Origin: Candidatus Dojkabacteria bacterium
Lineage (GTDB): Bacteria; Patescibacteriota; Dojkabacteria; B142; WJKM01
Assembly: GCA_014729085.1 (NCBI GenBank)
Contig: WJKM01000006.1
Coordinates: 16,152 to 80,151 of the forward strand
DNA length: 64,000 bases
Reading direction: 5' to 3'
Below, one piece after another: positions 42,414 to 59,871 of the stretch (the stretch's first letter is position 1; each line of letters starts with the position of its first letter). The notes below the pieces were generated by a model that made no database searches, was not told the origin of the DNA, and saw only the letters and a list, made by a program, of their open reading frames with translations. The position numbers were made by a program, and so were the translations under genes.

Positions 42414-43325
42414 ATGAATAAATTAGCAATCTTAAAACAGTTAACTAAATCTTATAACTTGAAAAATAATTATTTCGAAATTCTAAAAGAACTTCTAGAG
42501 AAAGATTTATCTGCTGTCGAAATTTTAGAGAGAACCTCAATTTCCAGTGGTAGGATTTACGGTTTATTAGCTGAACTGGAAGATTTACATCTTGTTGATA
42601 AAATACATGGAAAACCCGCAATTTATACACTAGAAAAATTTGATGATAATATACGAAATTTCTTACAGCACACATATGGTTCGTTTGTAGCCAAACAAAC
42701 AGAGATAAGTAATATGCTCTCTGTCTTATCAGATCAAATTAATATTAGTATTGGTTATGGAGATGAGAATATTAATGCGGAATTAAGGAGAATGTATAAG
42801 GAATGTAAATGGGCAAAAATACTTCATAAGGAAAGGGGTTATCCTTGGTTTCTAATAATAGATAACGAGGAGCAATTTTTTAAGATTAGACATAAAATTC
42901 GAACAAGTAGATTGGCTGGTTCTCCCAAAAACAAAGTTAAGTTATTATTAAAGAGAGAATCTTATCGGAAAGCATATAAAAACAAACAGATGGATCATAT
43001 TATGAGTCGTGAAGCTTTTAATAGATACGTAAATATGCTTGAAGAACTTTTTGGCAAAGATGTAAGGAAACAAATTATTCAAAGGGTTTATTCTAAGTTG
43101 AAGGATAATTCGCGAATTACAATACAGGTTCAGAAAAATTCATCTAATCCTTATTCTATATATATTACCGATAAAATGGTTTTGATAGCTTTACTTTTTC
43201 AGAGACAGGAGAACAGATATATTAAAATGACAGGAGGGGAGATTATTAAGAGTTATAAGGGAATTTTCGAAAAGTACATTCAGAATACAGAAAGCATAAT
43301 ACCTCTTCTAGAAGACTACATTTAA
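42414..43325 (+). CDS. Hypothetical protein with N-terminal HTH
   Basis: N-terminal wHTH-like (LKELLEKDLSAVEILERTSISSGRIYGLLAELEDLHLV). Confidence 0.45.
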   Translation: MNKLAILKQLTKSYNLKNNYFEILKELLEKDLSAVEILERTSISSGRIYGLLAELEDLHLVDKIHGKPAIYTLEKFDDNIRNFLQHTYGSFVAKQTEISNMLSVLSDQINISIGYGDENINAELRRMYKECKWAKILHKERGYPWFLIIDNEEQFFKIRHKIRTSRLAGSPKNKVKLLLKRESYRKAYKNKQMDHIMSREAFNRYVNMLEELFGKDVRKQIIQRVYSKLKDNSRITIQVQKNSSNPYSIYITDKMVLIALLFQRQENRYIKMTGGEIIKSYKGIFEKYIQNTESIIPLLEDYI

Positions 43326-43445: not shown

Positions 43446-43592
43446 TGCAATGTAACTAATATATTAAGTATGAGTTATTTATAGTACGTAATAGGGGATG
43501 AAAGTGTTACAGTTAAGAGAGTATTTTTACAAACTCAAAAACACGGATAAATTTGATGGATAATGAGTAACGCGAATAAGAACTATATAGTT

Positions 43593-43620
43593 TTGATATA
43601 TTTTTAAATTATAGTATAAT
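43593..43620 (+). promoter_or_regulatory. Sigma70-like promoter (TTGATA-16-TATAAT) with TTATAGTATAAT box
   Basis: Read directly upstream of the 43650 ORF. Confidence 0.45.
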
Positions 43621-43649
43621 TCGACAACTTCATCTTTTATACAAATAAT

Positions 43650-44672
43650 ATGGGTCATCATGAATTACCACTATCTGTTCAAATAGCACAAGACACAGAA
43701 CCAGACTCCGAACTGTATTCTCCCGATTTGATAGATACACCCCAAGAATTAGCAGAATATAAAGAGTCTAGATTTATTACAATGCTTCCAGATTATGTAG
43801 GTGATCACATAATAGGGGAGATAGATAAGAATGGAGATGGAATACCGGATAATAATGATGGTGATGGGATGCCTGATTATGCAGAGAGGTATATTCTGGA
43901 GTCTATATCAGGAAGTAATCCTGGATTTGTACTTGTTGATGTAGATTGGGATTCTTTGGTAGCCAGTTATGATATGTCTGGATTTTCTGTATTTGAATCT
44001 GAGGATGGCACCAAACTAAATTTAATTAGTTCAGATTCTCCCCAAGTTAATATAAACGGAGGTTATTTAAATGAAATAATTGGCAAGATAAAAGAATCAG
44101 GGATTGCTTTAACCCCATTTGTTAGACATGAAGATGGTCGTGCTCAAATTTATAATATAGAATTTGATTGGGATAAGAATCCATGGTTATGGTTATATGA
44201 AGATCAGGGCGAATCCGTTCCGGGTGGTGCTTTTCCAGTATATATCGGATCAGAAGTTGTACCTGATTTAAGTAGTAATGTATGGCAAGAAGAAGGGCAG
44301 GAAGCCTTTTGGGATCAACTTTCGTCTGATGATTGGAAGGATATTAGATTTTTATCTGGTACTTTGTTAGGTTATGCCCCAGACTGGAGGTATGTTTATG
44401 AAGATCAGACTATGTGGGAAGAAGCACTGGATATTGCAACAGGCATTGTAGCGTCTCAGGAAGAGTATTTTAATTATGAAACATACATGACTTCATTTCC
44501 CAATCTAGATGAACAGACATCTGAGGGATCTGGTGAGAATGTTGTTCAAGGATACTATTTAAGTGCTGATTTTGGAGGATTGGGAAATGAATCTACTATT
44601 CAAGCAATGAGTAGAGAACCCCTTTCTTACTTTACTGGCATGGAACCAGAGGAGTTAGTTTTGGATGATTAA
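43650..44672 (+). CDS. Acidic protein with thrombospondin-type-3-like Ca-binding repeat
   Basis: DKNGDGIPDNNDGDGMPDY (DxDxDG-type Ca-binding repeats). pI strongly acidic. Confidence 0.55.
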   Translation: MGHHELPLSVQIAQDTEPDSELYSPDLIDTPQELAEYKESRFITMLPDYVGDHIIGEIDKNGDGIPDNNDGDGMPDYAERYILESISGSNPGFVLVDVDWDSLVASYDMSGFSVFESEDGTKLNLISSDSPQVNINGGYLNEIIGKIKESGIALTPFVRHEDGRAQIYNIEFDWDKNPWLWLYEDQGESVPGGAFPVYIGSEVVPDLSSNVWQEEGQEAFWDQLSSDDWKDIRFLSGTLLGYAPDWRYVYEDQTMWEEALDIATGIVASQEEYFNYETYMTSFPNLDEQTSEGSGENVVQGYYLSADFGGLGNESTIQAMSREPLSYFTGMEPEELVLDD

Positions 44673-44701
44673 AATAGTATTTTATTCATTTAAATTAATT
44701 A

Positions 44702-44730
44702 TTGACTAGTTAGTAATCTTATAGTATAAT
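44702..44730 (+). promoter_or_regulatory. Consensus sigma70-like promoter TTGACT-17-TATAAT containing the ATCTTATAG box
   Basis: ttgactagttagtaatcttatagtataat read directly, about 30 nt upstream of the 44761 ORF. Confidence 0.55.
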
Positions 44731-44760
44731 TTATATATATTAAATTATTAATTTTTTCAA

Positions 44761-45219
44761 ATGGCTAACGAACAGATGCAAGTTCCTGAGAGGAAAAGTA
44801 ATACCGCTGCTTGGACAGCTGGACTACTTGGAGTTTTAGGACTTTTGTATGGAGGTGCTGAAGCTGCAAATTATGTTAATTTGATACCTGGTAATATGCT
44901 TAGGGACAGATTTGGATATGATGTAAAAGACGATCCTTGGGTTAATTTTCATGAGGTAACACATGATCTAGACGATGTCGAGTTTGTTATTGATCCTGAT
45001 GAGGACACATTTCTAAGTGCAAGATTTGATGAGGCTGGGCAAGATGTTGAACTTACTTGGGTATTTGATGTTACAGATGATGATGTTGATGATTTAATTG
45101 AGATGGACGGAAATGAGATAAGGTTTGATTTTGGAAATGATGGTAGTTTCGAATATGTCGGGGTTGATGAGGATGGAGACGGTACAATCCGAGGAGATGA
45201 GATTTCAAAACAAGAATAA
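44761..45219 (+). CDS. Acidic secreted/anchored protein, member of the N-terminal hydrophobic-helix paralog family
   Basis: N-terminus AAWTAGLLGVLGLLYGGAEAANYVNLIPG. Acidic C-terminal part with DEDGDGTIRGDE EF-hand-like loop. Confidence 0.55.
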   Translation: MANEQMQVPERKSNTAAWTAGLLGVLGLLYGGAEAANYVNLIPGNMLRDRFGYDVKDDPWVNFHEVTHDLDDVEFVIDPDEDTFLSARFDEAGQDVELTWVFDVTDDDVDDLIEMDGNEIRFDFGNDGSFEYVGVDEDGDGTIRGDEISKQE

Positions 45220-45301
45220 AATTCCAGAAACAAAAAAATATAAAAGAAGGTGCTTTAAAAAAGCACCTTTTTACTTTTAAAATGTATTTTTTATTGTGTG
45301 A

Positions 45302-45694
45302 TTAGAATTCGGGTTGAACAATTTGATTTTTCAATTTAACTGCCACACCAGAAGCCTTGGTCCAGGCCATTTCGCCGACTCCGAAATTATTTTGCATTTC
45401 AAAGTCAAGAATTGCATTTGCGCCAAGATTGTAGGCTTCTTCTAGAAGCTCGTCCAATGCTTGCTCTTCCGTTGTCTTGTGTCTTTCTTCATATTCACTT
45501 ATACGACCACCTGTTAAATTTTTAAGCCCTGCAAAAAATCCTTTACCCAGACTCACTCCCTGAATGCTAACACCACTAACGTATCCTAAGATTTTTTCGA
45601 TTTGATCAAGTTTTATATCTACTGTGAATGGGGCAATAAGGGCTATTTCGTTTTTTGGTGTTCTATATTCTTGAACGGGTGTTGTTTCATTCAT
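45302..45694 (-). CDS. YbjQ/UPF0145 (DUF74) family protein, paralog 1 (start at internal ATG; ORF opens 45751)
   Basis: ISGVSLGKGFFAGLKNLTGGRISEYE...LGANAILDFEMQ...GVAVKL pattern typical of the YbjQ_1 domain. Confidence 0.65.
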   Translation of the reverse strand: MNETTPVQEYRTPKNEIALIAPFTVDIKLDQIEKILGYVSGVSIQGVSLGKGFFAGLKNLTGGRISEYEERHKTTEEQALDELLEEAYNLGANAILDFEMQNNFGVGEMAWTKASGVAVKLKNQIVQPEF

Positions 45695-45719
45695 TTTGAC
45701 CGAATTATCTATTAATAAT

Positions 45720-45887
45720 TTAAAAATCATCAAATTCATCGATAGGTGCAAGCATAAAGCCCGTAGCTATAATTAATGCTCCTACCAGTGCTGCAACACC
45801 ACCATAGGTAATGCTTTTTTCCCAAAACCCCTTCGGATCTTCATCACTATCTCTAATATAGCGATAATCAAATGTATCCTGTTCCAT
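45720..45887 (-). CDS. Candidate 55-aa membrane micropeptide between the two YbjQ paralogs (MEQDTFDYRYIRDSDEDPKGFWEKSITYGGVAALVGALIIATGFMLAPIDEFDDF)
   Basis: Hand-translated minus-strand ORF with one TM segment. Not in the ORF track (under 60 aa). Confidence 0.35.
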   Translation of the reverse strand: MEQDTFDYRYIRDSDEDPKGFWEKSITYGGVAALVGALIIATGFMLAPIDEFDDF

Positions 45888-45903
45888 TTGATAAATAGTA
45901 GAT

Positions 45904-46296
45904 TTAAATTACTTGCTTTTCATCTTTAAGTACTGCGGCTACTCCTTCAGCTACTGCTTTTATAAGAAGATTCCCTGTCTCAAGATCTCTAATTATTTCG
46001 TCAGTAACGTCGAAATTTAAGATGGTATTTGCTCCAAGTTTTTCGGCTTCTTCTCGAACACGGCCTACAGCCTCTGTATGAGCCTGTACATATTCTTTTT
46101 CCAGTCCTTTTACTCCCCCACCAATTACTTCTCTTATACTTGCTTCCACTTCTCTAAAAAACCCAAGATCTCTAATTGAAATTCCCGCAACAGACCCTTT
46201 TACTTCCTCTATGTCGTAAGCCTCAACTAAGACCCAAGGGGGAAGTAATTGGATTTCACCTTCGGGTGAGGTAGGCCTAGTAAGTGTTTCTTCCAT
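45904..46296 (-). CDS. YbjQ/UPF0145 family protein, paralog 2
   Basis: GISIRDLGFF...LGANTILNFDVTDE...LIKAVAEGVAAVL, same family as 45302..45694. Confidence 0.65.
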   Translation of the reverse strand: MEETLTRPTSPEGEIQLLPPWVLVEAYDIEEVKGSVAGISIRDLGFFREVEASIREVIGGGVKGLEKEYVQAHTEAVGRVREEAEKLGANTILNFDVTDEIIRDLETGNLLIKAVAEGVAAVLKDEKQVI

Positions 46297-46331
46297 ATGT
46301 ATATATTTAAAAAAAATATAGTAAATTAATC

Positions 46332-46514
46332 CTATGGTTCGATCGTAGTTGTAGTAATGACAGTTTCCTCAGAGTACATCTCAATACCGGTTTCGGGATC
46401 AAAAAGTTCTGTATATGTGGTTTTAACTTCAACATCTGGCTCTTTTGTTTTCTTGAATGGCTGTTCAGGTTCTTTTTTATCAGTTTTTTGTATATCGTTT
46501 TGTTTTTCTTTCAT
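46332..46514 (-). CDS. Small hypothetical protein
   Basis: 60 aa ORF co-oriented with the YbjQ pair. Confidence 0.3.
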   Translation of the reverse strand: MKEKQNDIQKTDKKEPEQPFKKTKEPDVEVKTTYTELFDPETGIEMYSEETVITTTTIEP

Positions 46515-46724
46515 GTGTATATAAAAAGTAATATGTTAAAACCTATAATATTATATCATTAAAGTAAAAATTAAAAAACCATATTGTAAAACGAGTTGAA
46601 TTAAAAATCGAGATGGAAGTTGAATATATTAAATCAATCAACTATAATTTGCCAACCTATATTTTAGTTTTGATTTTAGGTATACTTAAGAAGTTAAGGT
46701 ATTTAATATTTTTTATAAATTCAT

Positions 46725-47297
46725 ATGACAAATTTTAATGAGGTTTTTACTAAATGGCTGGCGTTTTTTGAATCTGCAGACGAGACAAAGAAGGATGTTT
46801 TTGAGTCTATCCATCCTGAAGTTAAAAAAGGTTTTGATGTTGTCACTAGGGTATCTAAAGAGGAAATACAGGCTTTGCTAAATAATGAAGAGTTTTTGAA
46901 AAAAATAGAGCAAAATTTAATCCGATTATTAGCATTTTCGGTTTTCGGTGGGTATATGTTGTTTTGTATAAGAAAAGGAATCGACCCAGTAAAGGAATCT
47001 TTAAAAGACAACGAAAATGTAGCGAAAGTCGGGAACTCATGGATGGAGGCATATAAACAAGATAATTTTAAAAGTCTTATTCAGTCTATTGAGCCGTTAG
47101 TGGTATTGATGGTTGAGAAAGGGAAGCAGGCAAGAATGAATCAATTGATTATGTCTTTTCCAGAGATCATGAATTTGAGTTTCAAGGATGGTTTGCAAAT
47201 AGATAAATTTATGAGATGGGCAGGACTTCAAGGCTATATTTTAGGTATGTTGGAACAGGAATTAATTAAAGGAAAGGGAAATTTAAAGGAAGCATAA
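46725..47297 (+). CDS. Hypothetical protein
   Basis: 190 aa ORF, no motif recognised. Confidence 0.45.
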   Translation: MTNFNEVFTKWLAFFESADETKKDVFESIHPEVKKGFDVVTRVSKEEIQALLNNEEFLKKIEQNLIRLLAFSVFGGYMLFCIRKGIDPVKESLKDNENVAKVGNSWMEAYKQDNFKSLIQSIEPLVVLMVEKGKQARMNQLIMSFPEIMNLSFKDGLQIDKFMRWAGLQGYILGMLEQELIKGKGNLKEA

Positions 47298-47332
47298 AGA
47301 CATTGTTTTTTGCATTTTTACCCTAATAATAT

Positions 47333-48199
47333 ATGGAGTCAGAGGGTGAACTTAACATCATTCATCATGAAAAGGGTGATTTTTTAGAAGAAACAATAGG
47401 AAAGTTACTTGCTGTACCTTTTCAACATTTGACTTCTGGTACTTTATCGAGTGCTTTCAAACGAATTCCACCTGAATCGGTTGAAAGATTGAAAAAAACG
47501 TTTGAGGATGTTGAATGGGAAGGAGATATTGAAGTGCATTTGAATCACTCCCCACTTTTTAGGCAGCTGAAAAGGCTTTTTGAAAAAGAAAGGCGTGCTT
47601 CTCTTTTTTCGCGGATTGTTGTAGGCCTCCCTTTAACTGTTGCTACTAATATATTCAGCAAACTTACAAATGCAAATAATTACAACCCCTACACAGAAAC
47701 TGTTCAACTTTTTAACGAAAATATCTATACTAATATTACCGGAGTTGCATTAGCAGAAGAGATTGACCAAACTGAAGAGCCGATAAAAAGGGAAGTCAAA
47801 AGCCTTTTAACAACAATTCCCTATTTTTTAAGTTCTATTGTTAATTGGAAGGCTAAAGAACGGGCGATGCAGCATTTAAGTCCTGAAGAAAGAAATGAAG
47901 CTTTCCAGTATTTAGCTACAGGTAGTGTGAACGATATAATAATTGATAGTTTGACGTTATTCGGTGTTTTAGCTGGAATCTCTACATTTCTTCCTGATTT
48001 TGATTTGTCAACCGAAGCTGAACTCGGAATAGCTGGGGCAACCGCCGCTGGAATATATGGGTATACTCAATTAATTAGGGAGCCTGATGAATTAGGCTCA
48101 AGTATATTCTTCGATCCTAATAAGGAGATATTATTAGAAAAAAACAAGAAAAAGAAGATGAAGGATCGGGAAGTTTTTAGTCTAGATGTGAGTATATAG
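47333..48199 (+). CDS. Hypothetical membrane-associated protein
   Basis: 288 aa ORF with hydrophobic segments (FSRIVVGLPLTVATNIF; IIIDSLTLFGVLAGISTFL). Confidence 0.45.
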   Translation: MESEGELNIIHHEKGDFLEETIGKLLAVPFQHLTSGTLSSAFKRIPPESVERLKKTFEDVEWEGDIEVHLNHSPLFRQLKRLFEKERRASLFSRIVVGLPLTVATNIFSKLTNANNYNPYTETVQLFNENIYTNITGVALAEEIDQTEEPIKREVKSLLTTIPYFLSSIVNWKAKERAMQHLSPEERNEAFQYLATGSVNDIIIDSLTLFGVLAGISTFLPDFDLSTEAELGIAGATAAGIYGYTQLIREPDELGSSIFFDPNKEILLEKNKKKKMKDREVFSLDVSI

Positions 48200-48293
48200 G
48201 AATTATAAATTATGAACAGGGAGTACATATTGGTCAAATTAAAAAGATTATGAGATACTTAGATTGATAATTAATTAATTTATATCTATCTTT

Positions 48294-49115
48294 ATGCATT
48301 CAGCACCTGAAGCACAAGTTCCAGAAGAACTTACAAAAAAAGCGCAGGAACAACAAAAAGAGCAAAATGGCGAAAGGGAACAGGAGGCTCAGAAAACTGA
48401 AATGCCTGTAGAAGAATTGGTTAAGAGACAAGAGGGGATGATAGGAAAAATTGTTAAGTGGATTAAAGGTTTTGAGGCACAGGATGCTAAACGAAGAATC
48501 CAGGAAATTAAGGATAAAGAACATTATGATAAGTGGAGAAAAAAAATTAAGCAGGTAGAGAAGAAATGGAGGGATGGCACAATGCTTAGGAATACAGCAA
48601 TTAATCTGGCTGGATATTTTGCATTATTGATTGGTATTATTAATCCTTTAGCAGCTGGTCCATTAAGTGCTTTTTTTGCAGCTACAAAAATCCCACCTTT
48701 TTTTATAGCGTCATTAGTAAGAGGTACTCCTCCATGGAGAAATCTAGAAGGCAAGATTAGAGAGTTTTTTGATAAAAAAAGAGATGATTATCAGGAATAT
48801 CAAAGCCTTTTAAATCAAAATCCAGATAGTCCTACTAATAAAAGAATTAGGCGAAATATGGTTCGTTTTGAAGAGGCGGCTAAACGTGCAAAAGAAAGAA
48901 AAGAGAATGCAGAAAAAAATGGAGAGGAAAACCAAGACCAGGAAGCTGCATCGGAAGGACAAACAACTGGACAACAGACACAGCCTAAAGCTACAGAAGT
49001 TTCACAAGAACAAAGAAGACCGCAAACAAAAGAGGATCAGATACAAGCTATTCAAAACAGAACTGATATTCCGGAAGATGTAAAGGAAGCATTGGTAAGG
49101 GCTTTACGTGGTTAG
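48294..49115 (+). CDS. Hypothetical membrane protein with K/E-rich tails
   Basis: 273 aa. Central TM pair (INLAGYFALLIGIINPLAAGPLSAFFAATKIPPFFIASLV). Confidence 0.45.
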   Translation: MHSAPEAQVPEELTKKAQEQQKEQNGEREQEAQKTEMPVEELVKRQEGMIGKIVKWIKGFEAQDAKRRIQEIKDKEHYDKWRKKIKQVEKKWRDGTMLRNTAINLAGYFALLIGIINPLAAGPLSAFFAATKIPPFFIASLVRGTPPWRNLEGKIREFFDKKRDDYQEYQSLLNQNPDSPTNKRIRRNMVRFEEAAKRAKERKENAEKNGEENQDQEAASEGQTTGQQTQPKATEVSQEQRRPQTKEDQIQAIQNRTDIPEDVKEALVRALRG

Positions 49116-49165
49116 TTTGGCTTTGAAGATTTTTGGCTAATAAGTTTTAATATATTACAAAAAGT

Positions 49166-49600
49166 ATGAACTTAGAATTTCTTGCAAATACATTAGCGTT
49201 AACATCAACTCCTCGTGAGGAGATAGCTCAGTATGTAGCTGAATATTCTAAAACAGTAAGTTTATGTGCATTTGAGGCGGTAATGGGAGAACTTGACCAG
49301 ATGGAAGACAATGAGAAATTAGGGGATTTAGTCAATTTAGTTGGAGAACTGCATCAGCATAAAACAAGTTTAGATATTGCAGATGAAGAAAAGACAAAAG
49401 CATTTTATGACAGGTTTGAAGTTTTGATGAATTCGGTTATGGAGTTGCCTGAGGCAGAGAGAATAAAGGAAAGGATTGAGGAGGAAATAGATGCATTAGA
49501 CCAAGAAGTTGTTGACGAAATAATAGCAAAATGCACAGAAGAAGATAGAGAGAGAATATTAGAAGCTACTCAGGCGGTCCTTCAGGCCACTGAAGAATAG
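49166..49600 (+). CDS. Acidic hypothetical protein
   Basis: 144 aa, strongly acidic. Confidence 0.4.
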   Translation: MNLEFLANTLALTSTPREEIAQYVAEYSKTVSLCAFEAVMGELDQMEDNEKLGDLVNLVGELHQHKTSLDIADEEKTKAFYDRFEVLMNSVMELPEAERIKERIEEEIDALDQEVVDEIIAKCTEEDRERILEATQAVLQATEE

Positions 49601-49770
49601 AAGATTTCTGGAAAAACTTGGGAAATACATTAGAGCAGAGTGCATCATTCACAATTTCTATGTTTAGATTTACTATTAAATGAGATATCTGAATGTTTTA
49701 ATAGGTTCTAAATAGTTGAATTTCTGACTCTAGTGGTTTATAGTAAATTAGGTAGATAAAATTTTAATCT

Positions 49771-50088
49771 ATGCTTATGGGAGAGATAGATCCTGCCCAA
49801 TCAAAAGAAAAAAGTATAAAAGAGCATTTAGAAGGGGGATGGGCTTCTAAAGTATTGGAATGGCTGAAAGAGGATGGAGGCAAGAATTTACTCTTGCTCG
49901 GTTTAACAGTTCCGCTTGCGAATTTATTAACAGGAGGGGCCTTATTTGATGTTGTCGAAGGTGGGGCAGATACTTTAGCTGATGGAGTTGGAATGGTTCT
50001 AGAGGAAGGTGAGGAAGGAACAAGAGCAATACTTGAAAAACTTGGTGGTTTCACAACCAATTTAGCAGAAGAGCCCGCTGGTCCTTAG
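49771..50088 (+). CDS. Small protein of the N-terminal helix paralog family
   Basis: GWASKVLEWLKEDGGKNLLLLGLTVPLANLLTGGALFD shares the W..K.N..LLL.G...A.NL module. Confidence 0.45.
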   Translation: MLMGEIDPAQSKEKSIKEHLEGGWASKVLEWLKEDGGKNLLLLGLTVPLANLLTGGALFDVVEGGADTLADGVGMVLEEGEEGTRAILEKLGGFTTNLAEEPAGP

Positions 50089-50139
50089 ACGTAACAATTT
50101 GTAAGAAAACTTTATTAATTTAAATATAAACTAAACAGT

Positions 50140-51144
50140 ATGGAAACAAGAGAAACCCCACTTCCACCAGCAAGGGAAAGACCATTTGGAGAAAAGGTAA
50201 AAGAAGATGCAAAAGGAATTCTTGGAGGTCTAAAGGAAGGTATTAAAAAATATCCAGGAATTGCATTATTAGTTGGGCTTGGATCACTTGCTGGACTTGA
50301 AGCATCAAGTATTTTGGATGAACCCTTAGAAGAAGCTGGTATTGGAGAAGGGCATGGACTTGCTACTTTAGACGAGGCCCTAATGCAGGATGATGAATAT
50401 ATAGCAGAATTAGAAGCAGAAGGATTGATTATGAGGAAAGGCGAGGAATTCAATGGCGAGACTCTGGAGACTGATGTGGTGGTTTTTGATCCAGAAGAAC
50501 CTGATGCTGCTGTTAAAGAGTTAAATACATTTAATCTATTTTCTCATTGGCTTGGAGAGACTAGCTGGTTTGGTGAAAATGTTATAGATCCGATCGAGGA
50601 TGCTTTTGATGAGGAATCTGCTGAACCTACAGAACCTGTAGAACCCGCAGAACCCGCAGAACCTGCTGAAGTTGCTACTACAAGATTTTCTAATTTCACA
50701 TTTGCAGAATTCCTAGAGGAGTATCAAAGCCATTTAGATAGTGGTGGAGCTTTAACTGGTTCTAATAATTTAGTAACAGAATTGCAAAACGAAATGTCTC
50801 GACGAATTCCTGATGAATTTGAAGGGCAAGAAGCAAACTTAAGAGAAATGTGGGATCAGATCAATAGCTTGGAGAGGGATCTTAGTAGGGCACCAACACC
50901 GGAAGCTCAAGCACAAATAGACCTATATAAGCTTTACTTAGAAGACGCATTGGGTCCTGAACCAGGCCAATTGGAGAGTATTAGACAACTAGAGACCGAA
51001 CTTGCAGATCTTCAGACAGAATTAGACGCAATGGGAGACCCACAAGATGACGTAGAGGCTTGGGCATACGGTAATTTACAATCTCAGATACAAGGAAAGC
51101 AAGATGAACTAGATGCTATATTCAATCCTGCAACAGGAGAATGA
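50140..51144 (+). CDS. Acidic protein with EPxEP repeats, paralog family member
   Basis: N-terminal GILGGLKEGIKKYPGIALLVGLGSLAGLEAS. EPTEPVEPAEPAEPAE repeats. Acidic. Confidence 0.5.
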   Translation: METRETPLPPARERPFGEKVKEDAKGILGGLKEGIKKYPGIALLVGLGSLAGLEASSILDEPLEEAGIGEGHGLATLDEALMQDDEYIAELEAEGLIMRKGEEFNGETLETDVVVFDPEEPDAAVKELNTFNLFSHWLGETSWFGENVIDPIEDAFDEESAEPTEPVEPAEPAEPAEVATTRFSNFTFAEFLEEYQSHLDSGGALTGSNNLVTELQNEMSRRIPDEFEGQEANLREMWDQINSLERDLSRAPTPEAQAQIDLYKLYLEDALGPEPGQLESIRQLETELADLQTELDAMGDPQDDVEAWAYGNLQSQIQGKQDELDAIFNPATGE

Positions 51145-51194
51145 GAATAAGGATCTTTGTGTATTAGACTAATTTATTGCCTTAACTTATTAAA

Positions 51195-52352
51195 ATGACA
51201 GAGTTCGAAAGAACAATTACAGAAGAAGAACCTCAACCAGAAGAAAGAAAGACATTAGGGCAGAAAGCGAAGGAATTTTTAGATAAAAACATGGCTAAAT
51301 TCCTTGGTGTTGCAGCAGTTGCCGGTCTTGGTGTTGCAGAATACTACGATCTTTTCGGAGTGGATTTTACTAGTTTTGATGAGGTTGCACTTCGCGGAGA
51401 ACCCCCCGAACCAGATGCAGAAAATTTATACGACGAGCCTTTTGATTTAGCTGAAGATGCTGAATTTACGGACAGGTTTGCCTATTGGGTAGAGCATTTC
51501 TGGCAACTTAATCCCTTTAAAACGCCAGTTGCAGCGGAACCTTTGCCAGATGGCTTTTCTGATAGTTTTGATGTAGAGATTGAAGGAAATGATAATTTTA
51601 ACGATATATTCCCAAAGACAGAAGATTATGAAGATTTTGAAGAACGGTTCAGCCAATACCTGGAAGATATCTATGAAGGTTTGGAGGATCAATATCAGAA
51701 TGAATATACATCCGCAGAAAGAGCAGCGAAAGCAGCAGGACAGACACTTGACGATGAGACTATTGAGGAGATGAGGGAAACATATATTTGGGGTCAGGAA
51801 TTAGTGCATGATTTTAGGAATGTTAATTCGGTTGAAGACTTCCGGAGTTTTCTTGATGATCTACCTGCGAGCATGATTAAGGATATGGGGAATTCGATTC
51901 CTGAGATATATAGGCTAGGATTGGTAAGCGATGAGCAGTTGAATCAAATTGCCCAGGAGGCTGCTTCTGCATCCTCCACCTTTGGCGGACCAGATCAAAT
52001 TCCGCAACTTCAATATGAGGCTTTTGAGGGACTCAGACAGGTTGGGCGATTTGATGAAGATGCAGATGTTCAAAGATTTTTATATCATCTTTCCGGAACT
52101 ATTGATACGGAACTGCCACCAGGAGACCAAACTGGATCAGAATTTGACCAATTTGATGCCTTTTCAAGCTTGCTGAGAGCCAATAACGAAGATGATGTAG
52201 AGCAGGTTTTACAAGGAGTTGTAAGTCAACTTAAGAGTCAGGATAATTATGGTGGCATATTACATGAATACGAATTTCTTCGAGAATATTTAGGTCTGAC
52301 ACCTGAGGAGTTAGAATTTTTATATCCTTCAGAAAGTGAATCAACCACATAA
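51195..52352 (+). CDS. Acidic protein, paralog family member
   Basis: N-terminal KEFLDKNMAKFLGVAAVAGLGVAEYYD. 385 aa, very acidic. Confidence 0.5.
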   Translation: MTEFERTITEEEPQPEERKTLGQKAKEFLDKNMAKFLGVAAVAGLGVAEYYDLFGVDFTSFDEVALRGEPPEPDAENLYDEPFDLAEDAEFTDRFAYWVEHFWQLNPFKTPVAAEPLPDGFSDSFDVEIEGNDNFNDIFPKTEDYEDFEERFSQYLEDIYEGLEDQYQNEYTSAERAAKAAGQTLDDETIEEMRETYIWGQELVHDFRNVNSVEDFRSFLDDLPASMIKDMGNSIPEIYRLGLVSDEQLNQIAQEAASASSTFGGPDQIPQLQYEAFEGLRQVGRFDEDADVQRFLYHLSGTIDTELPPGDQTGSEFDQFDAFSSLLRANNEDDVEQVLQGVVSQLKSQDNYGGILHEYEFLREYLGLTPEELEFLYPSESESTT

Positions 52353-52460
52353 TTTTTGTTTCTATATAGTAATAATATTTGTCACAGCCCTTTCTATATC
52401 CTTATAGTTTTTGATATAATCACCACATCAAAATTTTTTAAATAAACTCAGGGCAGGTTA

Positions 52461-52489
52461 TTGACCTTTTTACAATCTTATAGTATAAT
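52461..52489 (+). promoter_or_regulatory. Consensus sigma70-like promoter TTGACC-17-TATAAT containing the ATCTTATAG box
   Basis: ttgacctttttacaatcttatagtataat read directly, about 40 nt upstream of the 52530 ORF. Nearly identical -10 region to the 44702 promoter. Confidence 0.55.
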
Positions 52490-52529
52490 TTATCAATTGT
52501 TTATACTTATTTATTAGTTACATACTAAA

Positions 52530-52751
52530 ATGGAACAACAACCACAAGAACCAGGATTTTTAGAAAAAGCATGGAATTGGGCTAAAGATAATTCAACTTT
52601 GCTTCTTTCTATTGTTGGGGCAACTTTGGCAGCAGATGCTGTAAACCTAACTGACATGTGGCCAAACTTTGGAGAAGAAGATGCAGATGATCCAGTTGCT
52701 AGAATTGAAGCTCTTGATTTCTGGGGAAGACCAGAAGATGCTGATGCTTAA
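52530..52751 (+). CDS. Small acidic protein, paralog family member
   Basis: FLEKAWNWAKDNSTLLLSIVGATLAADAVNLTDMWPNF then acidic tail. Confidence 0.5.
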   Translation: MEQQPQEPGFLEKAWNWAKDNSTLLLSIVGATLAADAVNLTDMWPNFGEEDADDPVARIEALDFWGRPEDADA

Positions 52752-52791
52752 TTTTTAATATTTAATAATTTAATTTTGAAATTTTAATATT

Positions 52792-53514
52792 ATGGCAGAT
52801 TATCCAGAACAAAGACCTTCGACCTTAGAGAGAATAGGTGACTGGGTTAATAGAAACAAGGAGGCATTGCTTCTAACCCTTGGTGGTTTGATGACTTCAG
52901 AAGCTATCAATCTTACAAATATAGTACCTGATGATTTTATTAGAAATGCTGTAGAGAATCAGTGGGGTGAAGACGCCTTCATTGATGAGGATCCAATTTT
53001 AGATTGGTTTCCTGAGGATGATTGGGATAGTTTTCAGATTTTTCCTAATATCAATTCTCCTTGGGACAGTGACATTGTTCCTGTTAATAGGGCAGAAAAG
53101 AATTATTATACAAATGCATTCTCGACAGTCGTCGAAAACCAATTCACTGGGGATGATGCAGACGATATAGCCCAAGAAATTGAGGGCTACACTGATGACG
53201 CTCTTGAGTTGGTAATCAATGATAACCCAGATGCACTTGGTACTGCTATAAGTGGTCTGACTGATGTTGATAATCTAGCCGAATATAGAACTTGGGTTGA
53301 AAATTTACCTGATGAGTATGAGGAAGAGTTTACAGCAGCTCTTGCAAGACGAGCACCTGAATCTTTAGAGTTACTTACAGATCAACAAGTTGTAGATCTT
53401 GCAGATGAGTTGTTTGGGGATGAAAGTAGTGAGGTCGAGGATATGGAAAGCGAAGGCGGGTTAGCAGATCAGGCAGAGTTCATAAGGGATGAAGCTATGG
53501 AAGATTTTGATTAG
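52792..53514 (+). CDS. Acidic protein, paralog family member
   Basis: LERIGDWVNRNKEALLLTLGGLMTSEAINLTNIVPDDF aligns with the 52530 N-terminus. Acidic, Trp-rich. Confidence 0.5.
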   Translation: MADYPEQRPSTLERIGDWVNRNKEALLLTLGGLMTSEAINLTNIVPDDFIRNAVENQWGEDAFIDEDPILDWFPEDDWDSFQIFPNINSPWDSDIVPVNRAEKNYYTNAFSTVVENQFTGDDADDIAQEIEGYTDDALELVINDNPDALGTAISGLTDVDNLAEYRTWVENLPDEYEEEFTAALARRAPESLELLTDQQVVDLADELFGDESSEVEDMESEGGLADQAEFIRDEAMEDFD

Positions 53515-53549
53515 AAAAAGGTCAGATTAGATTCGAATCTGAAATTTAA

Positions 53550-53577
53550 AGAGCAGCAGAAATGCTGCTCTTTTTTT
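53550..53577 (+). terminator. Intrinsic terminator
   Basis: AGAGCAGCA-gaaa-TGCTGCTCT followed by T7. Confidence 0.8.
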
Positions 53578-53957
53578 GTGTATTTGAGGTTTTTGTTCGA
53601 ACTAGGAATATTGTTGAGCATGTTTTTAGATGTACTCCCTTGATTGTTACTCAAGATTCCGTTTTACGGCCGGAATGATATAGAGAGATCCGTTCCCGAT
53701 CCCCGCTAGTATGCCACATTGATATTGGATATTGGAGGTATGTAAAAAAGCTAAAAATAACATTAAAGGGTCAATACTCTGAATTCTACGTAACCAAGCA
53801 GAAATGAAGTAAGGTTGATGACTTCTTCCTATGTCATTTCTGTGAAAATAGGAATCTTTCGTCGTTTCAGCATTCAGCTTACTTCAATACCGTTTTTTAC
53901 ACGCAAGCTTCTGGCTCTTCGGCCGGAATAAGATGGGGATTGACGATTTTTTATATC

Positions 53958-54133
53958 ATCTCTGTACGCCCATGTCATCCCTGTATCCCCATGTCATCTA
54001 TATAGCCCCTATGCCATCCCTGTTTTTTTATATCATCCCTGCTTTTTATGTCATCCCTGTTTTTTTTTATGTCCTCCCTATTTTTTTGTCATCCCTGTTT
54101 TTTTATGTCATCCCTGCGAAAGCAGGGATCTAC
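53958..54133. repeat. Tandem array of ~8 copies of a 12-bp unit ATGTCATCCCTG separated by 6-9 nt T-tracts (period ~20 bp), ending in a hairpin TCCCTGC-gaaa-GCAGGGA
   Basis: Read directly: catgtcatccctg..atgtcatc..atgccatccctg ttttttt atatcatccctg cttttt atgtcatccctg ttttttttt atgtcctcccta ttttttt gtcatccctg ttttttt atgtcatccctg cgaaagcaggga. The ORF 53933..54199 in the track is a translation artefact of this array. Confidence 0.75.
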
Positions 54134-54266
54134 CCAGCTTTAACACTCATTTTTCCCCAAGGAATATTAATTGACATATTTCATTTGGCAGAATTATAAC
54201 CTATGAGTCAATGGTTATATAAATTCTGATATAATTTTTTTGATTTTACTTATAATTTTTGGAGTA

Positions 54267-54512
54267 ATGCCTGAGGAACAAACAGTTCTTCCAGAAAGCC
54301 AAAGGACAAGAGACAGCCTAAAAGATAAACTTCTTTTTGCAACAGGTGTAGCTCTAGGTCTATTAACTCATGTTCCCGAGCTGTTAATATCAGGAGCTGC
54401 AGTTACTGGGGGACTATATTTAGCAGGGAAGCTCACAGGAGTAATACCTGAGGATCAGGATTTTAAAACAACAGTAAGGCGGGCTTCGGATGCAATAAAA
54501 GAAACATTGTAA
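54267..54512 (+). CDS. Small protein with central hydrophobic helix (ORF opens 54240; likely start ATG 54267)
   Basis: LLFATGVALGLLTHVPELLISGAAVTGGLYLAGKL. A TGaTATAAT extended -10 sits about 35 nt upstream (54224..54232). Confidence 0.4.
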   Translation: MPEEQTVLPESQRTRDSLKDKLLFATGVALGLLTHVPELLISGAAVTGGLYLAGKLTGVIPEDQDFKTTVRRASDAIKETL

Positions 54513-54644
54513 CAATTTGCAGTTTCTCTACCTTTCTTTTGTTCTGTTTAAGGTACTGTGGTATTATGAATTAAATCAATTTAATATTGATTGTTTATCG
54601 ATTTATATATAGAATAGATAGAATAAGTTTTTATTTGCACTTTA

Positions 54645-54968
54645 TTGTCGGAAACTTTAAATGAAACTGTAAAAAATAACTGGTTTCCTGTGCTTTTAGG
54701 ATTTGGTGGAGCATTGGCTGGACTTCATATATCAGGTGCCATGCCAATTGATGTAACTTGGGAATTTTTTGAGAATGCTGGTGAACGAACAGTCGAAGGG
54801 ATTAAGTATATTTTGGATATTGGGAATCAGCCTCATGAAGTTGCTTTAGAAGGAATAGGATCTCTTCCTCCTGATGAAGTTGATGATTTTCTTACTTGGG
54901 ATAGGATGAATGATTTACAAGCAGCATCGGATGAATTGGCTAATGAATTATCTGTTCCTCAACGATAA
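54645..54968 (+). CDS. Small acidic protein, paralog family member
   Basis: NNWFPVLLGFGGALAGLHISGAMPIDVTW N-terminus. Confidence 0.45.
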   Translation: MSETLNETVKNNWFPVLLGFGGALAGLHISGAMPIDVTWEFFENAGERTVEGIKYILDIGNQPHEVALEGIGSLPPDEVDDFLTWDRMNDLQAASDELANELSVPQR

Positions 54969-55004
54969 ATATAATATTTTAATTTTTAATATTAAATAAA
55001 TTCA

Positions 55005-55448
55005 ATGAAAGAATTAAAAGAACTTTTCGGAAAAATTTTAAATCATCTTGGCATTGTTGGTAAAGAAACTGAAGATATTACTAAAACATTTTTTAATCAA
55101 GTGTATGCGATCTTTATTGAAGATGTATTAAAAAAAGAGCTTCCTAAAGAAACATTTGACCGTAGAATCAAGGAGTATCAGGTTTATATAAAAGAGGGAA
55201 AGCATGAATTAGTACACAAGGATGTAAAACACTATATTAAAAAAGATTCCGGAAAATTGTTTGCAAAGGCATTTTTAAAGCATCTTAAATTCTTCGTATA
55301 TGGCTTGAAAGAAAAAGGGGATGTTACTCAAGAACAAATCAAACAGATAGGTGATATTTTGAAAAACCATATACAGGGAAAGCAGGCACTTGATAAAATG
55401 AAGAATAAAGAAAAGGGAAAAGAAGCTTTAAATACTTTGGCAAGCTAA
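55005..55448 (+). CDS. Lysine-rich hypothetical protein
   Basis: 147 aa ORF, K-rich, no motif. Confidence 0.4.
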   Translation: MKELKELFGKILNHLGIVGKETEDITKTFFNQVYAIFIEDVLKKELPKETFDRRIKEYQVYIKEGKHELVHKDVKHYIKKDSGKLFAKAFLKHLKFFVYGLKEKGDVTQEQIKQIGDILKNHIQGKQALDKMKNKEKGKEALNTLAS

Positions 55449-55490
55449 TTAAAACATAATTCAAAAAGTTTGTTTTTTGTTATCTTATAG

Positions 55491-55519
55491 TTTACAAACT
55501 ATAATTAATTTGCTATAAT
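55491..55519 (+). promoter_or_regulatory. Sigma70-like promoter TTTACA-17-TATAAT, preceded by ATCTTATAG box
   Basis: atcttatagtttacaaactataattaatttgctataat read directly. Confidence 0.55.
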
Positions 55520-55548
55520 GGATACATACTAAATAAAAAAGTCAAATA

Positions 55549-55617
55549 ATGAATAAAAAATTGATGCAACAAAACCTACTAAACCTCCTTCTAGTCCTAA
55601 CCGGATTTAGCGGGTAG
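55549..55617 (+). CDS. Leucine-rich leader peptide MNKKLMQQNLLNLLLVLTGFSG (attenuator candidate for paralog A)
   Basis: 22-codon ORF hand-translated. 7 Leu including a LLNLLLVL run (codons CTA CTA AAC CTC CTT CTA GTC CTA). ORF embedded in a long-range stem (TTGATGCAACAA 55561-72 with TTGTTGCATATCAA 55618-31). GCGGG at the ORF end can pair with the CCCGC arm of the downstream terminator. Confidence 0.5.
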   Translation: MNKKLMQQNLLNLLLVLTGFSG

Positions 55618-55650
55618 TTGTTGCATATCAATTAATTTCTCAAAAAATAA

Positions 55651-55674
55651 CACCCGCGAAAAGCGGGTTTTTTT
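55651..55674 (+). terminator. Intrinsic terminator (attenuator) CCCGC-gaaaa-GCGGG plus T7, 110 nt upstream of paralog A
   Basis: acacccgcgaaaagcgggttttttt read directly. Confidence 0.75.
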
Positions 55675-55784
55675 ATTTTAAGAAAATAAAAAAGGTTTGC
55701 CAGAGGCAAGATAGTACCAAAAAGGATTTTTTAGAGAAATTTTTTTATACAAATTAAAAATATTATAAATTTGAAATTCTAATC

Positions 55785-57587
55785 ATGACAGCTGAAGCTC
55801 AAAAAGAAGGATCACAATATACAAAAATTAATTTTGCCAATAATGAGGCTCCTCCAATTACTAGTACGGAAGGATTAAGTAAGTCTCTAGAAACTTACAA
55901 AATGGTACCTGAAGGTTCTATGATACTTGGAAAGCCGGGGGAAACAGGTATAGTAGTTTTGTCTCCTCAGGGCGAAATTGTAGCAACAGCTAGACATCCA
56001 TGGTTTATTCCTTCTTCTTATGATTTTGCCACAAGAAAATCGGAGTTTTATGGACAACAAAACTTGGCTCATTTGGATACCTCTATGGCATTGACTTTGG
56101 AACCTGAGTATTCGAGGCAGAAAGCAGCAGAGATAGTTAGAAGTGTTAAAGAAAATGGAATTTCTCAGACTTCCAAAGAAACTGGTTGTTTCACCATTGG
56201 TATGGAAGAAGAATGCTTGCATTTTGATAAGGATGGGAATCCAAAAGCATTGCCGGTTGACCAGCAAATTGAACTTCAAGATAATGTGAAAGAGATTCCT
56301 TTGGATCCTACAAATGGAGTGGCATCTGAAGCATTGATTGTTGCAGAGAGCCGTTTGAGCGAAATTGCAGAACATTCGGATTCTACAATTAATAGTACAA
56401 GCTTTTCTATATTAGGAAAGCCTGATGAACAGGGTATGAATTCAAGTTCTGATTATATTCATGCAGTTGCTGGGCACATGTTTGAAAATTACTTTTTCCC
56501 CAAAGATAGTGTTGCAGCTCAATATTGGAATAATATTGCTAAAGAAGCTGGATTTACTAATTTTTATGATATGAGAGATCACGTTAAAGATTTAACACCT
56601 TTGACTTTTGTTGCTTCGCATGTAAGCTTAGGTTTACGAACTGAAAAAACGAATGGTTCATATAACATTGGTCTAGAGGAAGGAATTGCTGTTTCTGATA
56701 TGTTTAATTCGAACTTTGCAACAGTTGCGGAATGGATGACTTATTCTACACCGCTTGCGTTTGGGAACAGACCAGGAGTAATAATAAATGGTGAAAAAAG
56801 ATATCCAAAAGATGCAAGGGCTGTCGGAAGGCTTGGTTCTAGAACCTCTCATGCTGGAGATTTTATTTATACTCCTGAAAATTACAAGTCAAGAGCTATA
56901 GAAGCTATAATAAATGGTTCAGCTGATAGGATTGATAGAGCAGCATATACTTCTTATCACGAGGATTTAGACCAGGATATTGCTAGTGTACATGCAAGAG
57001 TAAGATTCCGCGTAACTGGAGGCTCCGGAGAAGATTATTTCCAGAAACCTTTGGGTAGAGTCGAATTTGTAGGTGGAGCAGCTACTCCTGATATTGTTGC
57101 TTTGGTTGCACGAAATGCGATGGTTAAGTTGATGGGAATAGCTGCCTATGAAGCAGTATCAAACGGGCAGCATCCTGCTGATTATTTTAAATACAAATTT
57201 CCAAGTATGGCAGCTTGCGATGAACATATAGATCTTGCTCATGACTATAATTTTTACGGAGCAGATCATCCAAAAGTTGCTGCTTTATTAGAAGAGGCGA
57301 AGTCTTTCTTAAATTATATCCGTCAGGAGTATAATACTGAGGAAATTCAATATTTAGCAGATTTGGCAGAGGTGGGTTTAAATAAATTGGAGGAACCTAC
57401 AAAAGCGAGAAGCTTAGACGAATATTTAGAAGATCCACAAGGGAATATCTCTGATGTAGTAGCTCATATGTGGGAGGATGGCTATTCAGCTAAAGAGATT
57501 GCAGAGGCGGTCGCGGAATTTGAGAAGCAACAATCAGAAAAAATTATTGAAAATAATGGGGATATCTTAAAAATGTTGGAAAAATAA
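55785..57587 (+). CDS. Paralog A of a tandem triplicated ~600 aa enzyme; tentative glutamine-synthetase/GCL-fold carboxylate-amine ligase (GCS2/YbdK-like)
   Basis: Conserved blocks shared by all three paralogs: GxEEE.LHF strand (TIGMEEECLHF), CASHxSLGLR, GRVRFRVTGGSG, GRVEFxGGxATPD. They resemble the metal-binding ExE strand, His region and R-x-R block of GS-fold amide ligases. Assignment is inference only. Confidence 0.6.
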   Translation: MTAEAQKEGSQYTKINFANNEAPPITSTEGLSKSLETYKMVPEGSMILGKPGETGIVVLSPQGEIVATARHPWFIPSSYDFATRKSEFYGQQNLAHLDTSMALTLEPEYSRQKAAEIVRSVKENGISQTSKETGCFTIGMEEECLHFDKDGNPKALPVDQQIELQDNVKEIPLDPTNGVASEALIVAESRLSEIAEHSDSTINSTSFSILGKPDEQGMNSSSDYIHAVAGHMFENYFFPKDSVAAQYWNNIAKEAGFTNFYDMRDHVKDLTPLTFVASHVSLGLRTEKTNGSYNIGLEEGIAVSDMFNSNFATVAEWMTYSTPLAFGNRPGVIINGEKRYPKDARAVGRLGSRTSHAGDFIYTPENYKSRAIEAIINGSADRIDRAAYTSYHEDLDQDIASVHARVRFRVTGGSGEDYFQKPLGRVEFVGGAATPDIVALVARNAMVKLMGIAAYEAVSNGQHPADYFKYKFPSMAACDEHIDLAHDYNFYGADHPKVAALLEEAKSFLNYIRQEYNTEEIQYLADLAEVGLNKLEEPTKARSLDEYLEDPQGNISDVVAHMWEDGYSAKEIAEAVAEFEKQQSEKIIENNGDILKMLEK

Positions 57588-57677
57588 CGAATTAACTGGA
57601 TTTTTTATTAAAAATTTGCATATAATACAGCTGCAAATTTAAGAATTTAGAAATTAAAGCCTGTTTATCTTATAGTG

Positions 57678-57706
57678 TTGACAAATTCTAGAAATTGTAA
57701 TATAAT
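57678..57706 (+). promoter_or_regulatory. Consensus sigma70-like promoter TTGACA-17-TATAAT preceded by ATCTTATAG box
   Basis: atcttatagtgttgacaaattctagaaattgtaatataat read directly. Confidence 0.55.
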
Positions 57707-57742: not shown

Positions 57743-57787
57743 ATGAGAAAGAATTTCTTACTTGACAGCGTGATTATTATCCCTTAA
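57743..57787 (+). CDS. Ile/Leu-rich leader peptide MRKNFLLDSVIIIP (attenuator candidate for paralog B)
   Basis: 14-codon ORF with GTG ATT ATT ATC run. ORF end CCCTTAA can pair with TTAGGG. GGGGT (57793-97) can pair with the ACCCC arm of the terminator (antiterminator alternative). Confidence 0.45.
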   Translation: MRKNFLLDSVIIIP

Positions 57788-57829: not shown

Positions 57830-57852
57830 CCCCGAGACATCGGGGATTTTTT
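57830..57852 (+). terminator. Intrinsic terminator (attenuator) CCCCG-agacat-CGGGG plus T6 upstream of paralog B
   Basis: accccgagacatcggggatttttt read directly. Confidence 0.75.
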
Positions 57853-59717: not shown

Positions 59718-59749
59718 GATCAATTAGTAAGTTATTTATAATAAGAAAA

Positions 59750-59847: not shown

Positions 59848-59871
59848 ACCCGCCAAAAGGCGGGTTTTTTT
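59848..59871 (+). terminator. Intrinsic terminator (attenuator) CCCGCC-aaaa-GGCGGG plus T8 upstream of paralog C
   Basis: acccgccaaaaggcgggttttttt read directly. Confidence 0.75.

Follow-up and report, generated by a model that had tools for sequence, protein, structure and literature searches.

A promoter box in two registers and predicted Leu, Ile and Val leader-peptide attenuators at a ligase-fold gene triplet of a Candidate Phyla Radiation bacterium

The stretch of DNA presented above, a 64-kb window on a 152-kb contig of a Candidatus Dojkabacteria bacterium belonging to the Candidate Phyla Radiation (CPR), carries a recurrent 10-base box, ATCTTATAGT, embedded in near-consensus promoters, and three tandem genes for proteins with a predicted glutamate-cysteine ligase (GCL) fold. 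Modelling of the regions between these elements suggests that two of the box promoters head attenuators specific for leucine and isoleucine, that a third attenuator, specific for valine, is served by a promoter lacking the box, and that the three together control the ancient ligase triplet. The survey covered the window together with about 100 kb from relatives, i.e., the contigs of the ligase homologues, labelled L001 to L010; the window leaders are designated w55, w57 and w59. Judged by its conservation, the box is probably a selectively maintained promoter-associated DNA element, and it is predicted, with a confidence slightly below even, to be the site of a sequence-specific DNA-binding regulator.

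The four exact copies of the box in the window all lie on the + strand (Table 1). The original prediction had listed five copies; those at 44716, 52475, 55482 and 57667 are exact, while the one placed at 43610 corresponds to the degenerate AAATTATAGT at 43606-43615, which matches at 8 of 10 positions. The partial copies CTTATAGT (52401), ACTATATAGT (43582) and ATCTTCTAGT (42404) had been overlooked. The promoters proposed at 44702, 52461, 55491 and 57678 are correctly located and are also among the top-scoring sites, the only 11-12/12 matches to TTGACA-N16-18-TATAAT in the 19.5 kb between 43000 and 62500 being the five box promoters, which are all intergenic, on the + strand, and built on putative sigma70-type hexamers with 16-18 bp spacing. 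The proposal that the box occupies two registers relative to the core promoter is likewise borne out. In the -10 register, it forms the last 10 bp of the spacer, centred at about -16, in three acidic-protein promoters; in the -35 register, it ends 0-1 bp before the -35, centred at about -40, in the Leu- and Ile-type leader promoters. The two exact -10-register copies are part of an identical 20-mer, AATCTTATAGTATAATTTAT (44715-44734 and 52474-52493), flanked by unrelated 5′ spacer halves and 5′ untranslated regions (UTRs), and the 43593 promoter has TTATAGTATAATT in common with both promoters. The proteins encoded behind the three -10-register promoters contain 20-26% Asp plus Glu, two of the three have an N-terminal membrane anchor, and none of them has a Pfam match. 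Throughout the 64 kb scanned, all box copies precede acidic-protein genes or ligase leaders, and the box was not found at the rRNA, tRNA or housekeeping promoters of the window.

The number of copies is in itself of marginal significance. About 1.0 copy is expected per window for 9-mers, with 2-3 of 100 shuffles reaching four copies, and for the 10-mer a third-order Markov model gives 0.135 copies on the + strand against the four seen. One-mismatch copies are not enriched overall (12 seen, 8.7 expected), and 84 other 10-mers also reach four copies window-wide. The intergenic DNA amounts to 10 kb and contains only two repeated 10-mer families that reach four copies or more, the box among them; some 10-mer with at least four copies is present in 7-18% of simulated intergenic sets. 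The original prediction had named a motif frequency no higher than that of the AT-rich background as grounds for rejecting it: the enrichment is nominally there (about one expected, four seen) and becomes marginal once the look-elsewhere effect is allowed for (p ~0.07-0.18). A scan with the degenerate pattern C[CT][CT]N?AT[AG]GT was too permissive, giving many coding matches, and has been left out of the argument. It is from its position, its strand and its conservation across genomes, and not from the count, that the box draws its support.

The consensus of the box across genomes is CYYATAGT. In the -35 register, it is a conserved island in the orthologous promoters of L001 (gCTTATAGT-TTTACAAA, with the -35 TTTACA), L002 (CCCTATGGTA-TTGACT), L004 (CCCTATAGTA-TTGACT) and L010 (CTCATAGTG-TTGCAA), where neither the spacers nor the upstream flanks can be aligned and the ligase proteins encoded behind the boxes are only 50-67% identical. 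Conservation in these four contigs thus extends beyond the core hexamers, as is expected of an operator; the box is distinct from those hexamers, as claimed earlier. When seven promoters are aligned with MAFFT, four bases of ATAGT (A, T, G and T) prove as invariant as the -10. Such island-like conservation reads as the signature of purifying selection on the box. The prefix of the box is lineage-specific yet common to both registers, being ATCT in the window and CCC in L002 and L004, whose -10-register sites, CCCTCATAGTATAAT and GCCTATAGATATATAAT, precede acidic proteins. In the leader promoters of L002 and L004, the -35-register box is followed 25 nt later by CTTATGATAGAAT at the -10, and these double copies mirror the 24-nt-spaced pair of the 43593 promoter.

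The regulator-site reading leads because the box occurs in two registers, accompanies one gene set, is absent from rRNA, tRNA and housekeeping promoters, and is conserved with a prefix that co-varies between registers. The complete site may bracket the spacer, as suggested by the copies 24-25 bp apart in the 43593 promoter and in L002/L004, and a bound protein would compete with RNA polymerase or reposition it. The TrmB-like winged-helix protein encoded at the head of the cluster is a candidate binder, as is a second TrmB-like protein encoded at 24669-25463. The one-mismatch copy ATCTTCTAGT lies about 26-35 nt downstream of the likely transcription start from TGTTATAAT (42363-42371), and autoregulation of the TrmB-like gene at 42414 through this copy is possible. 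The box resembles operators laid on core promoters, such as tetO and LexA sites over the spacer or -10 and class II sites near -41.5 (CRP), in its fixed position against the -10 or -35, its restriction to a gene set and its conservation in orthologues; it differs from them in having no dyad, in sitting in promoters that are already near-consensus, and in using two registers, sometimes both in one promoter.

A number of observations weigh against an operator. Near-consensus promoters such as these need no activator. The box is not a palindrome or dyad; TTATA-G-TATAA and TTATAG-N8-CTATAA, dyads of individual promoters, show no conservation, the partner half-sites of the latter at 55482 not being kept in L001. 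The -10-register copy is missing from the sole orthologue available, that of the 52461 promoter in L001, and the -35 register is shifted by 2 nt between w55/L1a and the other promoters. No box was found in the Val-type leader promoters (w59, L1c, L3), which counts against a simple picture, and L002 and L004 are near-duplicates, so that few independent lineages contribute. Finally, TATAGT serves as a -10 elsewhere in the window, at 34583 (upstream of the 16S gene), 49716-49744 and 52379-52408. The earlier proposal of an operator shared by a regulon therefore stands as regards the single gene set, the two registers, the conserved -35 copy and the prefix common to both registers, and is weakened by the missing dyad, the use of TATAGT as a -10, the -10 copy lost in L001 and the 2-nt shift; it is the leading reading and is not established.

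It could also be supposed that the box is a polymerase-promoter contact or a promoter-strength module and not a regulator's site, an explanation we regard as rather unlikely. TTATAG would then act as an AT tract followed by G at -13, making a strong spacer, and TATAGT as a second, overlapping -10-like hexamer, while next to the -35 a TATA element, -10-like or flexible, would help polymerase docking via sigma or the alpha C-terminal domain. Spacers across bacteria are reported to have an AT tract and then, ahead of the -10, a G-rich region, an arrangement that raises promoter strength (PMC12641261), a rule that the -10-abutting copy fits and that thereby tells against the operator. The three uses of TATAGT as a -10 point the same way, as do the recurrence of ATAG before TATAAT in relatives (L001 5662, L002 -3330 and the L009 leader promoter), the standing of the box promoters as the strongest consensus matches of the region, and the retention of the two key -10 bases in the conserved xATxGT. 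However, a single contact surface cannot account for a 10-mer found unchanged, down to its non-TATA prefix ATC, at -16 as well as at -40, nor for a prefix that co-varies across registers within lineages; the 2-nt register shift speaks against a rigid contact, and the box is missing from the window's other strong promoters, those of rRNA and tRNA included.

Nor do the known polymerase-contact elements fit. The box resembles the extended -10/-16 region (TGn, TRTGn) in lying just 5′ of the -10, with T at -17 and -15, a purine at -16, G at -13 and an AT tract followed by G, but it has A instead of G at -14 and is a 10-bp block with C at -19, the identical block being found also upstream of the -35. 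The TG at -15/-14 is missing, as the -10-register promoters read TAG-TATAAT, and TGC-TATAAT is present only in 55491-55519. The -35-register copies share the position of the UP element proximal subsite (-46 to -38); by contrast with an UP element, which has A/T tracts between -60 and -38 and no conserved G/C, the box has no such tracts, has a conserved C and G, and is absent at the rRNA promoter. An IHF site or UP element was rejected on composition. An NrdR box was also rejected: only the right half, TATAGTGT, matches the NrdR consensus, in w57 and L010, and there is no palindrome. Inspection of both strands for a separate upstream or antisense promoter using the TATAGT of the box as its -10 revealed no acceptable -35 or TGn at the right spacing. 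The promoter scan gave just a weak 9/12 site (57648-57676).

That the box is functionless, a by-product of duplicated promoter-plus-gene units in which two pairs came to look alike by chance in AT-rich, TATA-like DNA, appears unlikely. The ligase genes are indeed tandem paralogues, 52-57% identical, and the acidic proteins of two -10-register promoters have a common N-terminal membrane-anchor motif; two independent events are too few for the count to be significant, as the simulated intergenic sets and the other four-copy 10-mers indicate, and the -10-register box is absent from the L001 orthologue. Yet the Leu, Ile and Val ligase clades are, by sequence, older than the split of the genomes, and neutral promoter DNA should since have been randomised, as the flanks and spacers are, whereas the box survives as an island in five genomes; this island-like conservation weakens the explanation. 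The 20-mer identity of the -10-register promoters is set between unrelated flanks, and a prefix common to the two registers in two lineages would be improbable by chance (roughly 0.005-0.02 per lineage, estimated from base composition).

Behind the leader promoters, the first open reading frame (ORF) is not the ligase gene but a leader of 14-22 codons with a Leu, Ile or Val run. An intrinsic terminator lies between this ORF and the gene in the window and in all relatives. The same layout is seen in 12 leaders from about six genomes and precedes the ligase homologues in all other contigs. As in known attenuators, the codons are clustered, in runs of 4-6 Leu, Ile or Val codons whose type is constant within each ligase clade: Leu in L2, L4a, L1a and w55, Val in L3, L1c and w59, and Ile in L10, L4b and w57. 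A Shine-Dalgarno motif precedes 0 of 43 window genes, despite a 16S 3′ end (~36300) that reads CACCTCCTT with a CCUCC tail, and the start codons of the window are located in A/T-rich unstructured leaders. Leaders without a Shine-Dalgarno motif are therefore normal here, and the motif is uninformative as to leader translation.

Altogether, these features suggest a model in which the leader transcript comprises the short ORF with its run, a G-rich strand that coincides with the stop codon or follows it closely, and an intrinsic terminator with a complementary 5′ arm. A ribosome stalled on the run would leave the G-rich strand free to pair with the terminator 5′ arm, resulting in read-through, while a ribosome reaching the stop codon would cover the G-rich strand and let the terminator form. 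The G-rich strand has the sequence of the terminator 3′ arm and can therefore pair with the 5′ arm. In minimum-free-energy folds, the run codons are paired with the G-rich strand and the terminator is formed separately. The strand at the ORF end pairs better with the 5′ arm of its own terminator (-10.9 kcal/mol) than with those of other leaders (-8.4 kcal/mol; permutation p = 1e-4). When a ribosome footprint is masked on the run, the terminator probability falls to about 0 in 6 of the 11 modelled leaders and drops partially in 2 more; with the mask at the stop codon, it returns to about 1. Covariation and the switching of 6-8 of 11 leaders thus point, computationally, to an exclusive antiterminator tied to ribosome position. 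Set against this, the equilibrium model shows no switching in w59 or L2 and hardly any in w57, and L2 has no obvious antiterminator.

On the strength of these models, the leaders are considered classical ribosome-mediated attenuators. The support is computational and consists of sequence anatomy, conservation, pairing covariation and thermodynamic plausibility; we infer protein binding at the box, the sign of regulation, the transcription start sites, translation of the leaders and switching in vivo. The attenuators of amino-acid operons (leu, ilvGMEDA, ilvBN, thr, his, trp; RF00512, RF00506, RF00513) share the ORF with its run of codons, the 1:2 and 3:4 hairpins, the 2:3 antiterminator and the Rho-independent terminator before the gene. 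Unlike those, the present leaders reach no Rfam family, occur in a CPR host that makes no use of Shine-Dalgarno motifs, and regulate GCL-fold paralogues, each with its own Leu, Ile or Val leader, instead of biosynthetic operons. Rfam gave no leader match at gathering thresholds; the only matches, all weak and to the operon leaders of Thr, Trp and Leu, score 19-24 bits where 41-55 would be needed, and a full-text literature search returned no report of leader-peptide attenuation in Patescibacteria/CPR.

The alternative that the products of the short ORFs are precursors or substrates for the ligases encoded behind them, after the example of Pup with PafA/Dop or of the clusters for ribosomally synthesised and post-translationally modified peptides (RiPPs), with the terminator merely setting stoichiometry, appears very improbable. 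The fold search does match PafA and Dop, whose small-protein substrate ends in Gly-Gly-Gln/Glu, and several leader peptides have G or GG as their last residues; in RiPP clusters, leaky terminators are often found behind precursor genes. However, conservation does not extend to the C-terminal Gly: the ORFs of w57, L1a, L2 and L4a terminate ahead of the G-rich strand, which is retained as RNA past the stop codon. In addition, this strand co-varies with its own terminator arm, only the single-amino-acid run and no peptide motif is conserved within each ligase clade, and the ribosome-position model yields the switch expected of an attenuator.

Two further observations concern the leader regions. 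In L001, the middle ligase gene, an orthologue of the Ile-type gene of the window, begins 48 nt after the first ligase (7810-7857) without a leader, promoter or terminator of its own, and the Leu/Ile-type leader of this contig (LILLI) may serve both the first and the middle genes. The UTRs that follow the terminators of leaders 1 and 3 (55697-55709 and ~59893-59908) have in common a GCCAGAGG motif (TTGCCAGAGGCAA hairpin; CCTGCCAGAGGAAAGG), and L002 has TTGCTCTAGGCAA at the equivalent place; this motif is possibly a further conserved element, downstream of the attenuator and ahead of the ligase start.

The three ligase paralogues belong to a rare family, with 12 members among 5.8 billion proteins, a profile search finding the same 12 as a single-sequence search; scans of genome and metagenome contig collections yielded no further relatives. 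No Pfam match (GCS2 or Glu_cys_ligase) was obtained at E <= 0.01, and no PDB sequence match. The AlphaFold model (pLDDT 77, pTM 0.83) is matched by Foldseek to 1v4g, 2d32, 1r8g and 2gwc with probability 1.00 and E from 1.6e-7 (1v4g) to 4e-5, the TM-scores being only ~0.4-0.66. The predicted structure thus resembles E. coli gamma-glutamylcysteine synthetase, YbdK and plant glutamate-cysteine ligase and, more weakly, glutamine synthetase, Dop and PafA. In relation to the GCS2 superfamily, the modelled fold agrees and the sequence profile does not: the likeness to GshA/GCS2/YbdK carboxylate-amine ligases lies in the predicted fold, and the window proteins differ in their 9-12% identity to them, their length of ~600 residues and a long C-terminal helical domain. 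The label of ligase paralogues used in the original prediction is reasonable at the level of predicted fold. Distant family members are followed by Peptidase_C26/GATase (gamma-glutamyl-hydrolase-type) or M20 peptidase genes.

The genes of the window lie almost all on the + strand, and its GC content is 32-43%. One-strand coding together with a GC content of 35% raised the question of a phage origin, which was rejected: there was no match to phage records, and genes of rpoB and rpoC size, a 16S gene and tRNAs identify a bacterial chromosome. The 16S gene is followed by tRNA-Ile (36714-36788), an ORF of 161 amino acids (37006-37491) and tRNA-Ala (37602-37678), and no 23S gene lies within the window; the rRNA operon is interrupted or unlinked. 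An extra copy of CTTATAGT is found at 37850, beyond tRNA-Ala. The acidic-protein array, otherwise one-directional, is interrupted in its middle by - strand genes at 45302-46296, which comprise two YbjQ_1 paralogues (putatively heavy-metal-binding) and a pair of small acidic ORFs. A possible unannotated membrane peptide of 38 amino acids, MITLVVAILMIGAFGLSEYTSELEETKEDKHSFSGKIY, was spotted by eye on the - strand at 43330-43450, downstream of the TrmB-like gene and ahead of the first promoter of the acidic proteins. At 53947-54116, in the long gap that separates the 53548 terminator from the 54171 promoter, about nine units of 18-19 nt (TATGTCATCCCTGTTTTTT) form a tandem array that ends in the hairpin TCATCCCTGCGAAAGCAGGGAT; an 88-amino-acid ORF at 53933-54199 is probably just this repeat read in frame.

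Table 1. Box copies, promoters, leaders, ligase genes and neighbouring features. Positions are those of the window, or of the named contig for the leaders of relatives.
Feature	Position	Strand	Details
Box copy A1, ATCTTATAGT	44716..44725	+	in spacer; final T is first T of -10
Box copy A2, ATCTTATAGT	52475..52484	+	abuts -10
Box copy B1, ATCTTATAGT	55482..55491	+	final T is first base of -35 TTTACA
Box copy B2, ATCTTATAGT	57667..57676	+	one base 5′ of -35 TTGACA
Degenerate -10-register copy, AAATTATAGT	43606..43615	+	8/10 match; common core only TTATAGT; promoter 43593-43620
Degenerate -35-register copy, ACTATATAGT	43582..43591	+	perfect 10-bp palindrome; one base 5′ of TTGATA -35
Extra core copy, CTTATAGT	52401..52408	+	its TATAGT is the -10 of a TTGTCA-18-TATAGT promoter (52379-52408)
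One-mismatch box, ATCTTCTAGT	42404-42413	+	abuts ATG of TrmB-like gene 42414-43325
TrmB-like winged-helix regulator gene	42414..43325	+	heads cluster; candidate binder
Promoter TTGATA-16-TATAAT	43593-43620	+	box-like copies in both registers, 24 nt apart
Promoter TTGACT-17-TATAAT	44702..44730	+	before acidic membrane-anchored protein gene 44761-45219
Promoter TTGACC-17-TATAAT	52461..52489	+	before acidic protein genes 52530-52751 and 52792-53514
Promoter TTTACA-17-(TGC)TATAAT	55491..55519	+	Leu-type leader
Promoter TTGACA-17-TATAAT	57678..57706	+	12/12 match; Ile-type leader
Promoter TTAAGA-17-TATAAT	59714..59742	+	Val-type leader; no box; -35 overlaps stop codon of upstream gene
Leu-type leader ORF, MNKKLMQQNLLNLLLVLTGFSG (stop)	55549..55617	+	G-rich strand AGCGGGTAG 55609-55617, complementary to terminator 5′ arm
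Leu-leader terminator, ACCCGCGAAAAGCGGGT and T run	55652..55675	+	terminator 55652-55668; ~110 nt before ligase gene 1
Ligase paralogue 1	55785..57587	+	600 amino acids; predicted GCL fold
Ile-type leader ORF, MRKNFLLDSVIIIP (stop)	57743..57787	+	G-rich strand TTAGGGGTAG 57790-57799
Ile-leader terminator, CCCCGAGACATCGGGG and T run	57830..57852	+	terminator 57830-57845
Ligase paralogue 2	57888..59717	+	609 amino acids; 100% identical to GF362_01585 of a Candidatus Dojkabacteria bacterium
Val-type leader ORF, MNQIFLNNNVVVVVEPRLSGG (stop)	59750..59815	+	G-rich strand 59804-59812
Val-leader terminator, ACCCGCCAAAAGGCGGGT and T run	59848..59872	+	terminator 59848-59865
Ligase paralogue 3	59967..61760	+	597 amino acids
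L001 leaders	5752-5870 and 9817-9930		runs LILLI and VVVV
L002 leader	~9745-9860		run LDLALLL
L003 leader	~6036-6160		run VVVVV
L004 leaders	~183-300 and ~2281-2395		runs LDLALLL and IIII
L005 leader	~9858-9975		run FFFLIVV
L009 leader	~9853-9975		run ILLL
L010 leader	~526-635		run IVIII
16S rRNA gene	34790-36308		three tRNAs also in window

A wider proposal, possible and in its full extent doubtful, is that a CPR-specific regulator, for which the TrmB-like protein of 42414 is a possibility, uses the box as its operator and controls a small regulon made up of acidic secreted or membrane-anchored proteins and of three ancient GCL-fold ligase paralogues, each also gated by its own Leu, Ile or Val attenuator. 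The ligases would then provide one pathway per branched-chain amino acid, for salvage from or synthesis of gamma-glutamyl-type conjugates, in organisms unable to make these amino acids. Gene regulation in CPR/Patescibacteria is barely known, and a conserved promoter box with a candidate local regulator offers a concrete handle on it. The attenuators outweigh the box in importance: they attach a sequence-level functional label, the charging of Leu, Ile or Val tRNA, to three members of an unannotated protein family, and imply that a genome-reduced symbiont senses individual branched-chain amino acids via translation. If true, this would be the first ribosome-mediated attenuation system from the Candidate Phyla Radiation, and the substrates of the enzymes, together with the amino-acid economy of the organism, would thereby become directly testable.

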